Below, one piece after another: positions 25,613 to 35,843 of a stretch of DNA of 64,000 nt; positions within the stretch are counted from its first letter, which is position 1, and each line of letters opens with the position of its first letter. Source of the DNA: Trypanosoma brucei (Eukaryota). Position numbers and translations under genes: made by a program. The DNA is taken from positions 3,936,001-4,000,000 of the forward strand of contig CM000208.1 in the NCBI GenBank assembly GCA_000002445.1, given 5' to 3'. The notes beneath the pieces were generated by a model, which searched no databases, had not been told where the DNA came from, and saw only the letters and a list, made by a program, of their open reading frames with translations.

Positions 25613-26715
25613 ATGAAATATATAGAAAGAATTCATGCAATAATAGGCTGTTTATCCTTTATTGTTATGGGGATTAATTTATTTACGTCACTATATAACT
25701 TGTTTTGTGAGGATTATCCTATTTCACTTGAAATAATAGAAAATGACTATATGAGATTTGTTACGCAGGATGTAAGGAGGATTTGGAAAAGCAAAGATTA
25801 TTTGGTTGTAGCTCTAATACCTTTAATAGATAATAACGAGATTTTAGAAGAAGGAATATTCAAAGAGAAACGTGTTGGAGTTATCCTGAAGTGGCAAGAA
25901 AGTCAAATAATTTTACAGGGAAGTTGCTTGTAGTATATGCTCTTTCACCTTACACAAATAACAATTGCAAACTCAGAGAAATTGCTGCAACAGAGGGTTA
26001 TGTAAATCAGGATATTATTATTTTACCCGTTTGCGATGTCGACCCTACAACAAATAAGAAAGTGGGAGAAGCTGGTAATTGGGGTTGGGAAGCAGAACTC
26101 ACGATGAGTAGAAAAACGTATCTGTGGTTCAAATTTTCAGTAGAGATATTCAAGAAAACTAATCCCTATATAATAAAAGCAGATAACGATATATTTATGA
26201 GAGTGCCATTGTATCTAAAATATCTAGAGCTGCTTCCAAGAGAAAAATTAAATATGGGGAGAGCAGTTGGATATTATAAAGATTTTAGTGATGAAATTAC
26301 ATGGCACACCATTGGTTATGCATCGACACTATCTAGGGATGTAGTTAAGAAAATTGTTGATTATGACCCTCTGAAAAAATTAGTAAAAGCACCAATTAAG
26401 TTCAGAAATTTTGAATCATATATGGATTTTAGAGCACTTAATGAAGATACTATGGTTGGAGAGGTAATAAGGAGTAAATTGAAATTTGAGGGTTTATTAA
26501 CTGTGGATATGCAGGACTGTCATTTTGTAATGCATGCGCAAACTCGGGGACCAACCGAGGCCAAAAGTAGTTGCAACATCATAGCATTTCATCATATCTT
26601 GCCTTACCAGTATCAACAGCTGCCCCTAACATCGAACACATCAATTTGTGCAGGCAAACGAAACCCAGTGTTACGCACCATAAACGATCAATGGGCAGAG
26701 TTCACTTGTCAATGA
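25613..26715 (+). pseudogene. Glycosyltransferase pseudogene copy 1 (trypanosome UDP-Gal/UDP-GlcNAc-dependent GT, GT31/GT67-like; frameshifted)
   Basis: Two overlapping ORFs in different frames (25613-25933 and 25891-26715). An N-terminal hydrophobic anchor suggests a type II membrane protein. YIIKADNDIFMRVPLYLKYLELL resembles the beta-3-glycosyltransferase LLKxDDDVFV (DxD) region. Confidence 0.6.
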
Positions 26716-27199
26716 CAGTTATTCCAAGCCAAAGCAAGCAACGAAAAACCGAGCAAATAAGGTGGGAACCGGCAAGTCTCCGCATGCAATGTAACTATGA
26801 CCTGGTAGGCACAACAAAAAAAGGAATAAAAAAGCATGCACCGCAATTCGGTATTTTCAAGAGACGGCAGCAAACTCAAGCCACAAAAGCTCCAACTCAA
26901 AGCTATTTCCCCGCACCGACCATAGCATGTAGGTGACAAATAAGAAACGACTATGTAAAAGGCAGTAAACAGAAACGACACAAGCTGCGTGATCCAGGAC
27001 CAAACAAGTGTTGTTTTTCTTTGCCGACGCGGTGGCTCGCTACTGGCTAGCAACTAAAAAACAAAGATAATCTAAACAAATTTTTTTCGTTTTCACACAG
27101 AGGTATAAACACCATGTCCACACACACGATAATCAAAACCAGCAGCCTGCAGCAATTCTCAAAACACTAGGTCGCCATTCAAGAGGAAATTTAGTTAAA

Positions 27200-28740
27200 A
27201 TGGTCAAACAACTCATGACAAGCGCCATCTTAGTGCTACTTGTAGCAACAAAAGGTGATGCAATAGTGGCAGCAGGTGACAATGCAGCAGCAGCAGGCGC
27301 CCTTTGTGAAGTTCTGGCATTAGGCGCCGGGCGGAGTTTGCTAACTCAACCTAAAGAAAACGCTGACACAGCGCACCACAGCCTCCTAGACTTGAACATG
27401 TCGCTTGCAGGTGAAAGTTGGAGGTCTGTCTTTGAGGAATCAGGCAAAAAGGGAACATATCCGGCAGCGAAGCCACAGCGCTACGACACCAACAAAGATT
27501 GGGATACAAAATGGAAGGAATGGTCGCAAACGGCTCAAAGGCTAAAGGACGCTGATGGCATACAGCAGAAACTCAAAGAACACAAACTCCATTCCAGAAC
27601 AGTCCAGCATTTGGCAGTAGCCAAGCAAGCGGTCCTACAGCTAGCCGATGAACAATCAAAACTTGCAGCGGAACTTCAAAGGATAAAGGACACAAAGAAA
27701 ATCCTAGCTAACGATCAGCTAAGAGAAAAGATAAATACAGCTCTCTATGGCGAAAACGTCGCCACAGAAAACACACTATCACCTAACAAGGTATTTGACG
27801 CAACAGCCGGCAGCGACAGGAAAGCCAACTGCGACGGCACAGCCAAAGACAACAAAGCGAAAACAGTGATGGCAGCGCTGGTGTGCGTATGCAGCGAGGA
27901 TTCATCCAGCGGCCTAGACCAAGCGTGAAACAAGCATCTAACCCTAAATCAGCAATGGACATCGAGCAGTCAACCAACAAACGATGTGATGCAAGAGCTA
28001 AGAAACCTCTGCCCGACAGCAAAGCCGACAACCATAACGGCAGCCAGACTGGCGAGCATAATAAGCAATGTTAAGACTCACTTCATCGCAAGCTCATCAG
28101 CAACGGTATTAGGAAAACTGGATACGGGAGCAGCCTGCAGTGGTTCTGCCAACAGCGGGCTCTGCTTAAAATACACGGACGTCCACCAAGTGGCAGCAAA
28201 CACGATAGACGACATCAGTTGGATAGCTGCTCTAAACCAGATAGTAAACGACATAAAAGACCACGAAGAGAGCGTAGCGGCAGTAGACAGCATCGGCCGC
28301 CAGCTAAGCGCAAACACTGAAAAAGCAGGAGCCTTTATCGCCAGCATAGAGCAGTACACGCAGGCACAAGCAGCAGTATCACCAACAACGAATCCCAACC
28401 CCGCACAGGCTCAGAAAAACGATCAAAATGCAAAAAATGCTTGCGCCCAACACAGGTCTAACACAAGCTGCACAGATGAAGGCTGCAAATGGGATGGGAC
28501 TGAAGAAACCAAAGGAAAGTGCAAACCTAAAGATGGGGAAGTACAGAAAACTCAAGGAACAGGAGAGGGAGCTGCAGAAACAAATGCCGAAGGCAAAAAG
28601 TGCTCCGAAAAGACAAAGCAAGAGGAATGAAAAGATGACTGCAAATGGGAAAATAATGCTTGCATAAATTCCAGTTTTCTTGTAAACAAACACTTCGCCC
28701 TCAGCATGGTTTCTGCTGCATTTGTGGCCTTGCTTTTTTA
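27200..28740 (+). pseudogene. VSG pseudogene (A-type; frameshifted)
   Basis: ORF 27200-27928 with a signal peptide, ALCEVLALG, LNMSLAGESW, REKINTALYGE and ALVCVCSED. ORF 27986-28630 carries the C-domain with CTDEGCKWDGTEETKGKCKPKDG. The last frame has [36 protein letters not shown]. Confidence 0.8.
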
Positions 28741-28791
28741 ATTAACCCCCCCTTTTATAAAAATTTTCCCCCTGCTAAAATTTTGCTACAC

Positions 28792-28807
28792 TGATATATT
28801 TTAACAC
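28792..28807 (+). promoter_or_regulatory. VSG 3'UTR 16-mer, perfect
   Basis: TGATATATTTTAACAC. Confidence 0.85.
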
Positions 28808-33423: not shown

Positions 33424-33555
33424 TTTTTGATGAAAATTTGAAAATCAGTAGAAATCATTAAATATACGTATAAAAGTTGCTTGTGGGTGTAAATTAGTAT
33501 GGTAACAAGATATGGATAATGAGCACTTTCTCAACGCATTTCCACTTTTGTTTTT

Positions 33556-33905
33556 TTGCGGATATTAGTCATGGCCATAATTGTAACGGTAAGTAAAATA
33601 ATAATAATGATATTTATAGGAGAGTGTTGTAAGTGTGTATATACGAATATAATAATAATAATAATAATAATAATAATAATAATAATAATAATAATAATAA
33701 TAATAATAATAATAATAATAATAATAATAATAATAATAATAATAATAATAATAATAATAATAATAATAATAATAATAATAATAATAATAATAATAATAAT
33801 AATAATAATAATAATAATAATAATAATAATAATAGGAGAGTGTTGTGAGTGTGTATATACGAATATTATAATAAGAGCAGTAATAATTAGAATAATGATA
33901 ATAAT
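33556..33905 (+). repeat. 70-bp repeat block with an uninterrupted (ATA/TAA)n tract of about 180 bp
   Basis: GGAGAGTGTTGTAAGTGTGTATATACGAATATAATAATAATAAT... then AATAGGAGAGTGTTGTGAGTGTGTATATACGAATATTATAATAAGAGCAGTAATAATTAG. Confidence 0.85.
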
Positions 33906-34692
33906 AATAGTAGTAGTAAGTAAGTGATCCGAATGACGAGTGCAAAGAGAGAGAAAACAAGGACTATTATTGAGGAAGGCGACGGTAGACAAAAAGAGCA
34001 AGAGGGATAAAAATAGAATGTTAGAATGTTAGAACAAAAACGTCACGATGGAAATCATCAGACACAAAGAACTGATATAAGCGGATGTATTCAGTACACA
34101 CATAAGGTTAAAGCTGCTTTTTTGCTGACCAGCAACATATAAGATGGATAAAAAAATTCCGACTGTAAGAACGCGTCGGACTAACCCAAAGTGTGGAATA
34201 GTATAGATCGATCATCGATCCACATATTTTACCTCAAGTGGGATAGATATTAGCGCATAAATGATAGTAGAGGCAGGTGTAGAAGCTGTTAAAAAATCAC
34301 CGATGATGGCAGTATCATGGAACTTCCCGATGGATGTGGTAGGTAAAATAGAAACTATTAAACTTCTCACTATATTTGAATAACACAGCGAGACTATCTA
34401 CTGAAATTACCATGTAAATGTCTAAAGAGGAATTCTATATTCAGCGACTGTGCCATATGTGACTGAAGTTATATTCTAGGCGACAAAATTGATACATGGT
34501 GGAATATAAGCTGTCATTATTTAGTGTGCAGCCTTAAACAGTTACATCATATCAACAAAAAGTCATTACTTATATTTGCAAACATTTTTACCCTACTATA
34601 CATCTTAGTTGCTCCCACTGACTTCTTTCCTTAATGTTTTATGTGATTTTCTAACTGATAATAAGCTCGCCTTAGTATGACAATAAAGTCTT

Positions 34693-35843
34693 ATGAAGTA
34701 TATAGAGAGCATTTACGCAATAATCGCTTTCTTTTCTTTTATTTTTATGGGGATTAATTTATTTGCGTCACTATATAACTTGTTTTGTGAGGATTATCCT
34801 ATTTCACTTGAAATAATAGAAAATGACTATATGAGATTTGTTACGCAGGATGTAAGGAGGATTTGGAAAAGCAAAGATTATTTGGTTGTAGCTCTAATAC
34901 CTTTAATAGATAATAACGAGATTTTAGAAGAAGGAATATTCAAAGAGAAACTTGTTGGAGTTATCCTGAAGTGGCAAGAAAGTCAAATAATTTTACAGGG
35001 AAGTTGCTTGTAGTATATGCACTTTCACCTCATACAAATAACAATTGCAAACTCAGAGAAATTGCTGCAACAGAGGGTTATGTAAATCAGGATATTATTA
35101 TTTTACCCGTTTGCGATGTCGACCCTACAACAAATAAGAAAGTGGGAGAAGCTGGTAATTGGGGTTGGGAAGCAGAACTCACGATGAGTAGAAAAACGTA
35201 TTTGTGGTTCAAATTTTCAGTAGAGATATTCAAGAAAACTAATCCCTATATAATAAAAGCAGATAACGATATATTTATGAGAGTGCCATTGTATCTAAAA
35301 TATCTAGAGCTGCTTTCAATAGAGAAGCTGAATATGGGGAGAGCATTGGGCGAACTTGACGAGTATATTGGCAAGCTGACGTGTTATTTTGTTGGCTACG
35401 CCAATACGCTTTAAAGAGATGTCGTGGAATCAATAGTTGTCTATTCAAATGTTTCCAAGCTATTATCCAGTAGAGTCAGTTTTCGAAACTTTGACAAATA
35501 CATAGATTATGCCGCATTGAACGAGGATATTATGGTTGGGGAAGTAATAAGGCACAAAATGAAACTTGAAGGTTTATTGACTGTGGGTATGCAAGATTGT
35601 CATTATGTGATGCATGTGAAAAGGCCACTAGACAGGTTTTTAGCAAGTAATCCTAACCTTATTGTTTTACACCGCATTTCAGAGGAGGAATACAAATGGT
35701 TAATGAAAATATTTGAGAATACAACGGCAGAACAAATATCTGGCCCAACACAAATAAGAATAACGCGATTCTGGCAGGAGTTCAGCTGCCGCCCGCTAAC
35801 GCACGCAACTGGACATGCAGCCACGAAATCGGCACAACCCTAA
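34693..35843 (+). pseudogene. Glycosyltransferase pseudogene copy 2 (paralogue of 25613-26715; frameshifted)
   Basis: Three ORFs in different frames (34693-35013, 34971-35414, 35424-35843). The block 34770-35330 is near-identical to copy 1; the flanks are diverged. The C-terminal segments align with copy 1: RNFDKYIDYAALNEDIMVGEVIRHK versus RNFESYMDFRALNEDTMVGEVIRSK. Confidence 0.6.

Follow-up and report, generated by a model that had tools for sequence, protein, structure and literature searches.

Two glycosyltransferase pseudogenes in a VSG array

We analyzed a 64-kb stretch of Trypanosoma brucei DNA (contig CM000208.1, positions 3,936,001 to 4,000,000; hereafter the window), which contains two paralogous glycosyltransferase (GT) pseudogenes, copies A and B, that share a near-identical central tract. 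The window is a subtelomeric array of genes for the variant surface glycoprotein (VSG) from a parasite of the T. brucei group, as follows from about 12 VSG domains (VSG_B, Trypan_glycop, and Trypan_glycop_C) detected in a Pfam scan of its larger open reading frames (ORFs), an inserted retroelement, canonical 70-bp repeats dispersed along its length, and homologs of T. brucei GTs. Four of its ORFs, searched with and without the stop codon, and two 106-aa N-terminal ORFs have no identical entry in the protein collection. No third GT copy was found in the window by tblastn or by DNA homology search. The two copies were compared with a set of 16 related proteins (labeled P0001, P0002, and so on) and two additional DNA copies, L001 from T. 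b. equiperdum (CM010680.1) and L002 from T. equiperdum OVI.

The DNA homology between copies A and B spans positions 25491-26542 and 34571-35622, respectively, and takes in about 120 bp upstream of the ATG. The alignment is gapless over 25591-26542 at a constant offset of 9080 bases. Both copies lie at the originally predicted coordinates, on the forward strand. The level of identity is highly uneven along this alignment. The copies are 74.3% identical in the 5' flank (25591-25664) and 64.2% identical in the 3' flank (26236-26542), while the final 173 bp (26543-26715) are effectively unalignable (39%). Between these flanks lies a 571-bp tract with 98.9% identity, where the only six differences are located at positions 25685, 25872, 25941, 25951, 25953, and 26122. 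The original prediction, made from the sequence alone, had described such a mosaic, with near-identical segments at 25680-26240 and 34760-35320 and a strong divergence after about 26240/35330. The identity profile (74%, 98.9%, and 64%, with sharp edges) bears out this description with slightly shifted tract limits (Table 1), although the predicted identity of 80-85% at the 5' ends was too high.

Altogether, the 952 aligned sites include 135 differences. In 20,000 permutations of these differences, none gave an identical run of 186 bp (the longest was 90 bp), and none gave a 571-bp window with six or fewer differences (the minimum was 55). The deficit of A/B differences in the tract corresponds to a hypergeometric P of 7.5e-50.

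Three of the six tract differences fall within 13 bp (25941-25953), where copy A has the Tyr codon TAC, while copy B and the whole family have the His codon CAT. This cluster may have arisen by micro-conversion, through a complex mutation, or when a heteroduplex underwent patchy mismatch repair.

Recombination versus constraint

The central tract spans the conserved catalytic core of the enzyme, including its DxD region, and is also the best-conserved segment in other pairs of the family (77-80% DNA identity, compared with 52-65% in most 3' flanks). Near-identity of this segment might thus be ascribed to purifying selection on the most conserved part of the enzyme with no recombination at all. 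The synonymous sites refute this explanation, to which we give practically no credence. Third codon positions of copies A and B are 98% identical in the tract and 47-48% identical in both flanks, while in all other available DNA pairs (A or B versus L001 or L002, and L001 versus L002) the third-position identity of the tract is 65-69%. Because the third positions are homogenized, protein constraint does not explain the tract. Moreover, protein comparisons of the annotated paralogs show differences of 16-29% across this region, which is thus no ultra-conserved block; the two additional DNA copies and the 16 proteins already contradict an identity of 98% or more throughout the family.

Both copies are frameshifted, as had been predicted, and they carry the same lesion. 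A net -1 frameshift located just past codon 76 and within the tract is common to copy A and copy B (34921-34937 in the latter). At this site the family sequence reads IDNDERFRRRN, while both window copies switch frame after IDNNE. Selection on the protein is not possible for a tract with a shared frameshift. The flanks have a different history. Differences at the third codon position are overrepresented there (53 of 110 on the 3' side, 9 of 13 on the 5' side), so the divergence of the flanks dates from a time when the genes still coded for protein.

Taken together, a near-identical block with two internal breakpoints inside a longer diverged homology, its homogenization down to synonymous sites, and the conflicting relationships of tract and flanks that appear once further paralogs are included argue for an ectopic (non-allelic) gene conversion patch in old paralogs, a reading to which we assign a probability of about 0.8. 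Gene conversion had been proposed originally as the cause of the mosaic, and it is the best explanation for two copies with homogenized synonymous sites and flanks of different subtypes. We infer that A and B are old paralogs that carry a young patch. In the scenario that we favor, the flanks of A and B would have diverged long ago under coding constraint and now represent different 3' subtypes. Later, homologous recombination would have copied the conserved catalytic core of approximately 571 bp, which by then already carried the frameshift and the DDD-to-DND change described below, either from one copy into the other or from a related copy into both. The mechanism is presumably a RAD51-type ectopic conversion, as in the formation of mosaic VSGs. 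The patch probably ends where the homology of the paralogs decays, namely in the signal-anchor region on the 5' side and in the subtype-specific segment past approximately residue 208 on the 3' side.

It could also be argued that the core was homogenized during assembly or polishing, when reads from one paralog were used to correct the other, given that subtelomeric VSG arrays are difficult to assemble. We consider such an artifact very unlikely. Six differences persist in the tract, including the cluster of three substitutions, and the tract edges are sharp and lie within unique flanks. In addition, an original core with 77-80% identity, as in other pairs, would not let the reads cross-map, and the mosaic structure is also visible against independent assemblies (copy B versus L001 and L002).

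Several points weigh against gene conversion. The A/B comparison was made on assembled sequence. The tract is carried by two sequences only, so that neither the donor and recipient nor the non-reciprocity of the transfer can be demonstrated. According to an analysis of intact genes, the subtelomeric UGT lineages of T. brucei, which are thought to have expanded via transposition between subtelomeres, 'rarely recombine' (PMC5853035). Finally, copy A loses its affinities inside the tract: it shares 17 of 19 N-terminal residues with P0004 and is about 80% identical to P0002, P0008, and P0009 in the 3' flank, yet its identity to these proteins in the tract is 71-73% (73% for P0004 and 71% for P0002).

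Segment affinities and the source of the tract

The flanks of the two copies belong to different branches of the family. In the 3' flank (residues 209-310), copy A has 76-81% amino acid identity to P0002, P0008, P0009, and P0014 and 57% identity to copy B, while copy B has 74-80% amino acid identity to P0001 and P0003 and 81% DNA identity to L001. Upstream, copy B is closest to L002, with 87% identity in the spacer and 82% in the 5' flank. These affinities disappear in the tract, where the identity of copy B to L002 drops to 79.7%, the level of the family baseline (76.7-79.5%). Inside the tract both copies are equidistant from all relatives, at 77-80% identity for DNA and 63-77% for protein (71-77% for P0001-P0004 and P0010/P0011). 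As both copies lose their flank affinities, neither resembles the native owner of the tract; the cause is either mosaicism of the relatives or a tract that came from a third copy. A recurrent boundary lies near residue 208, at the start of the subtype-specific segment (GYYKDF... versus GELDEY...), and the GT family is thus a modular mosaic.

According to the original prediction, the conversion occurred between these very copies, about 9 kb apart. This part of the claim is not demonstrated by our data, since the flank affinities of both copies vanish in the tract and a third donor is equally possible. A third paralog could have passed the tract into A and B independently, or into one of them and from there into the other, and their identity would then reflect a common recent donor. 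The loss of affinity to L002 in copy B and to P0004 and P0002 in copy A is consistent with such a donor. In addition, six private replacements in the tract affect positions that are otherwise invariant in the family, among them S71L (IPSID motif) and D192N (DDD motif). They suggest a donor that was already decaying as a pseudogene before the copying; in frequency, private replacements do not set the segments apart (tract, 6 of 74; A flank, 2 of 34; B flank, 3 of 34). Against a third donor stand the lack of another copy in the window, the lack of any database protein with more than 77% similarity to the tract, and the possibility that the flank relatives are mosaics too and mimic the signal. 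We therefore regard it as a tentative alternative for the origin of the patch.

At an earlier stage of the analysis copy A was considered the recipient, based on 24 informative protein sites (18 like P0001/P0003 and 2 like P0002). This assignment was withdrawn after 11 added relatives had revealed that most of these sites were P0002-private changes.

Family assignment and pseudogene status

Sequence similarity places both copies in the subtelomeric beta3GT/GT67 (GT31-like) family of glycosyltransferases, in agreement with the GT31/GT67-like assignment that was made originally. Copy A is 57-71% identical to glycosyltransferases of strain TREU927, five of which were matched with E-values from 1e-65 to 2e-132, and a profile search identified 16 relatives, including proteins from T. 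congolense and T. equiperdum. Many of these are short pieces of ORFs from subtelomeric TREU927 pseudogenes. Most of the nearest annotated sequences are truncated in this way and come from contigs that are unassembled or subtelomeric (for example, Tb10.v4.0188). The Pfam domain PF01762 (Galactosyl_T, GT31-type) was matched in all seven aligned sequences that were scanned (E <= 0.1; best 1.3e-7), and precomputed PF01762 matches exist for P0001, P0003, P0004, and P0007. The repaired translations of copies A and B reach 15.5-15.9 bits (E 0.012-0.015), less than the curated cut-off of 23, and the value for the L002 copy is 26.9 bits. Among PDB sequences, the profile matched only B3GNT2, weakly (E 0.39) and around the DDD motif. 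AlphaFold2 predictions for the paralog P0001, built on alignments of 8 and 21 sequences that were too shallow, had mean pLDDT (predicted local distance difference test) values of 31.5 and 37.1, too low to assess the GT-A fold.

The DNDIFM sequence, which had been proposed as a DxD-like motif, formally retains the D-x-D pattern but is degenerate. Copies A and B read KADNDIFM, while the nine closest paralogs that cover the site have KADDDIF and P0006 has KGDDDMF. Thus DDD is present in 10 of 10 annotated paralogs covering this site, and the window copies have lost the central Asp at an otherwise family-invariant position. The predicted type II topology agrees with a hydrophobic N-terminal anchor in both copies, called from hydropathy only. 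The maximal Kyte-Doolittle mean over 19 residues is 2.04 in copy A (residues 9-27) and 2.19 in copy B (residues 7-25), compared with 2.64 in P0004.

Neither copy has an intact ORF, and we classify A and B as pseudogene members of the GT family and not as enzymes, most probably without function. Copy B has an additional in-frame TAA (35412-35414) and has lost the native stop (the family C-terminus ends at 35789). In copy A, the shared frameshift is the sole evident lesion, and no disabling lesion is located outside the tract. Because of this difference between the copies, it is possible that the conversion itself inactivated copy A.

The beta3-glycosyltransferase superfamily of T. brucei, now family GT67 in CAZy, comprises TbGT3, TbGT8, TbGT10, TbGT11, and TbGT15, among others, as well as the expanded subtelomeric lineages 1 and 7 of Silva Pereira & Jackson 2018 (PMC5853035). 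The window copies resemble this superfamily in a weak match to the PF01762 region around the DxD motif, the N-terminal anchor, and the subtelomeric location, and differ from it in being pseudogenes with DND in place of DDD and a sub-threshold PF01762 score. Their nearest relatives are not characterized enzymes; the closest protein with the name 'galactosyltransferase', P0007, is 43% identical to P0001. Glycosyltransferases constitute 1.1-1.5% of the subtelomeric genes of T. brucei (PMC2854126); many of them are pseudogenes, with differences from strain to strain (PMC4288722).

Cassette context of the GT pseudogenes

The predicted order of 70-bp repeat, GT, and VSG is confirmed for both copies and recurs at the two T. 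equiperdum loci (Table 1). All four GT copies with visible context, from three genomes, are located between a 70-bp repeat and a VSG_B pseudogene on the same strand; a T. congolense locus (L003) is a 4.7-kb contig with the GT only. Independent lesions are present in all four copies (A, B, L001, and L002). Between the 70-bp repeat and the GT start codon lie 688 bp in copy A and 778 bp in copy B; the VSG start codon follows 485 and 150 bp, respectively, after the GT end. Across the four loci, the spacing is about 690-985 bp upstream and 150-485 bp downstream of the GT. The spacers around the GTs contain short ORFs only and nothing gene-like.

Table 1. Features of the GT cassettes in the window and of the related loci L001 and L002 (window features are numbered from the first base of the window)
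Feature	Position	Strand	Evidence and remarks
70-bp repeat units upstream of GT A	24785-24925	+	(TAA/TGA)n then GAGTGTGTGTATACGAATATTATAATAAG; match to the 70-bp core at 24895-24923 (1 mismatch)
GT pseudogene copy A (beta3GT/GT67-like)	25613-26715	+	Translations; tblastn, two in-frame blocks 25613-25840 and 25858-26709
Putative converted tract, copy A (571 bp)	25665-26235	+	6 differences versus copy B
Interval with the shared net -1 frameshift, copy A	25841-25857	+	tblastn, translation
VSG_B-type VSG pseudogene downstream of GT A	27200-28745	+	Pfam VSG_B, Trypan_glycop_C; frameshift between 27928 and 27986; in-frame TGA 28628-28630
Interstitial telomere repeat	28955-29079	+	(GGGTTA)10 then two degenerate 30-bp telomere-derived units; Tandem Repeats Finder (TRF), pattern search
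70-bp repeats upstream of GT B, including (ATA)62	33590-33915	+	Exact 70-bp core match 33847-33875; TRF
Spacer between 70-bp repeats and GT B	33916-34692	+	Homologous to the equivalent L002 spacer (T. equiperdum OVI)
GT pseudogene copy B	34693-35843	+	Translations; tblastn
Putative converted tract, copy B	34745-35315	+	Pairwise comparison with copy A
VSG_B-type VSG downstream of GT B	35939-37480	+	Pfam; 478-aa (amino acid) ORF, in-frame stop (…AEKE*KDCKSPDCKWEG…) before the glycosylphosphatidylinositol (GPI)-signal region
L001 (T. b. equiperdum, CM010680.1)	Degenerate 70-bp repeat 9120-9195; GT pseudogene 9947-11046; VSG_B pseudogene 11207-12331
L002 (T. equiperdum OVI)	70-bp repeat 1-31 (contig start); GT ~1015-2112; VSG_B 2562-2990

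The VSG downstream of copy A is followed by the conserved 16-mer of the 3' untranslated region (3'UTR) at position 28792. The VSG downstream of copy B looks intact but stops before the GPI-signal region and is therefore a pseudogene; a search for the exact 3'UTR 16-mer (TGATATATTTTAACAC) did not find it after this gene.

Upstream of copy B, the similarity to L002 extends from the spacer into the GT gene. In blastn, positions 33924-35341 match L002 positions 253-1664 with 81.8% identity over 1424 bp, and the identity reaches 87% in the ~100 bp directly upstream of the GT. Positions 33916-34039 also match L002 positions 115-241, so that the first ~125 bp of the spacer correspond to two adjoining L002 segments, and the start of the spacer looks tandemly duplicated in L002. 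As the spacer and the 5' part of the GT are conserved between copy B and L002, a module that comprises at least the 70-bp repeat, the spacer, and the 5' part of the GT was inherited together. The homology does not extend through the whole GT but stops close to the 3' edge of the tract, which makes the GT core a recombination junction in more than one lineage.

The original prediction proposed that the GT-VSG pair is moved as a unit during duplicative transposition. A mobile unit of the GT and its downstream VSG, copied by transposition that is primed in the 70-bp repeats, would account for the expansion of the family as well as for its recurrent slot. The same slot, strand, and similar spacing of the GT at four of four loci agree with such a unit, as does the upstream module kept between copy B and L002. 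The cassette of copy A ends in a telomere repeat, as would be expected of a formerly telomeric cassette. A further weak hint is the resemblance of the VSG after copy B to the VSG of L001, which surpasses that of other pairs (tblastx E 1.5e-72), together with the 81% identity of the adjoining GT 3' flanks. However, no direct evidence for joint movement was obtained. The VSGs after copies A and B have no DNA homology and 23% amino acid identity, the spacers flanking copy A are unique in the window and unrelated to those flanking copy B, and the homology of copy B to L002 ends in the GT, which means that neither the 3' half of the GT nor the VSG was inherited along with the upstream part in that case. 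Likewise, no homology was detected between the two cassettes, or between them and other cassettes of the window, beyond the GT, the 70-bp repeats, and one VSG 3' element.

The recurrence of the slot is itself weak evidence. The gap between a VSG and the next 70-bp repeat is about 225-260 bp, while the interval from a 70-bp repeat to the next VSG is 0.6-2 kb. A randomly placed gene on the same strand would therefore fall into the latter interval approximately 85% of the time (~240 bp versus ~1.4 kb), so that four of four is not significant. Both copies do occupy the same slot, as had been noted, but given the gap lengths this is nearly the sole slot open to a gene on this strand. Overall, we consider a mobile GT-VSG unit unlikely as the source of this arrangement, and co-mobilization is possible but unproven.

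The co-transposed region, which extends from the 70-bp repeats to the VSG, is copied together with the VSG when conversion begins in these repeats. The GT pseudogenes lie in exactly this interval and on the strand of the VSG at all four loci. However, the co-transposed region of expression sites is not known to carry genes, save an occasional VSG pseudogene, and is no known home for non-VSG genes. We therefore doubt the original view of the slot as the position taken by co-transposed-region genes.

Comparison with known recombination systems

Segmental gene conversion among silent subtelomeric VSGs and pseudogenes is established in T. brucei (PMC3708902). Like these conversions, the patch reported here is short, joins diverged paralogs in the same arrays, ends inside homologous coding sequence, and involves pseudogene substrates. 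The difference is in the substrate, which here is a GT pseudogene in the silent archive, with no selectable product and no tie to an expression site or antigenic variation. A second parallel is provided by the telomeric SCG glycosyltransferases of Leishmania, which undergo concerted evolution (PMC5853035). They belong to the same broad UGT superfamily and are likewise homogenized by recombination near chromosome ends, but this affects whole genes, whereas only a 571-bp core was homogenized here, between copies that are otherwise 64-74% identical.

For the VSGs, the upstream homology for conversion is supplied by the 70-bp repeats (PMC4858185). In our literature search on GTs with the 70-bp repeat or the co-transposed region, no publication assigned GT genes to the stretch from a 70-bp repeat to a VSG, and none combined 'UDP-GlcNAc-dependent glycosyltransferase' with '70-bp repeat'. 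A GT transposing together with a VSG was observed neither here nor in the literature searched.

The GT pair thus adds a well-documented case to processes and a gene family that are already known, and is an ordinary by-product of a recombination-prone region. What is new, namely the cassette position of the GTs and their modular mosaicism, is modest. The pair provides a clean, datable case in which the recombination that shuffles silent VSGs also patches neighboring non-VSG pseudogenes. It presents the subtelomeric GT family as a modular mosaic and not as a set of independently evolving genes, which qualifies the 'rarely recombine' statement (PMC5853035) and cautions against phylogenetic trees built from whole-gene alignments of the family. 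For the parasite, both copies are dead genes, and the event was probably without phenotypic consequence.

If the slot recurrence at four of four loci in three genomes reflects true hitch-hiking with VSG cassettes, it would provide a mechanism for the expansion of the GT family. We can further speculate that GT67 genes are regular passengers of VSG cassettes, and that their conserved core serves, besides the 70-bp repeats, as a second upstream homology block where cassette recombination starts or ends. The latter is hinted at by copy B, which is L002-like upstream and L001-like downstream of the core, although we regard this proposal as quite improbable. Were the passenger reading true, it would explain the expansion of the subtelomeric GT lineages, and, in cases with an intact GT, duplicative transposition would put a cassette-specific glycosyltransferase under RNA polymerase I transcription beside its VSG.

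Additional features of the array

The telomere repeat tract downstream of copy A begins approximately 215 bp past the end of the GPI signal and 150 bp past the 3'UTR 16-mer of the preceding VSG. Its G-rich strand is oriented with the VSG, as at a true chromosome end. The order of 70-bp repeat, GT A, VSG, and TTAGGG repeats resembles a cassette that was once telomeric and has since become internal. In our literature search, no publication dealt with interstitial telomere repeats of T. brucei arrays. The telomere tract is followed by ~450 bp of T-rich unique sequence, by a heavily degraded fragment of a VSG C-terminus with the GPI signal (~29550-30020, within which 29729-29791 matches 61041-61102), and then by a 70-bp repeat at 30317-30398. 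The junction at 29080-30400 may mark an old healing or fusion of a chromosome end.

The retroelement of the array is located on the reverse strand at 9868-14669 and is of the ingi type (non-LTR, that is, without long terminal repeats). It contains a 1022-aa ORF with endonuclease and reverse transcriptase domains, while the RNase H and C2H2 zinc-finger domains are found in separate ORFs; its coding region is therefore broken by lesions. In addition, TRF identified two pure ATA triplet runs in the window, (ATA)158 at 57801-58274 (474 bp, 98% purity) and (ATA)62 at 33649-33834 (100% purity), the latter within the 70-bp repeats upstream of copy B. Both runs are the expanded triplet portion of 70-bp repeats.

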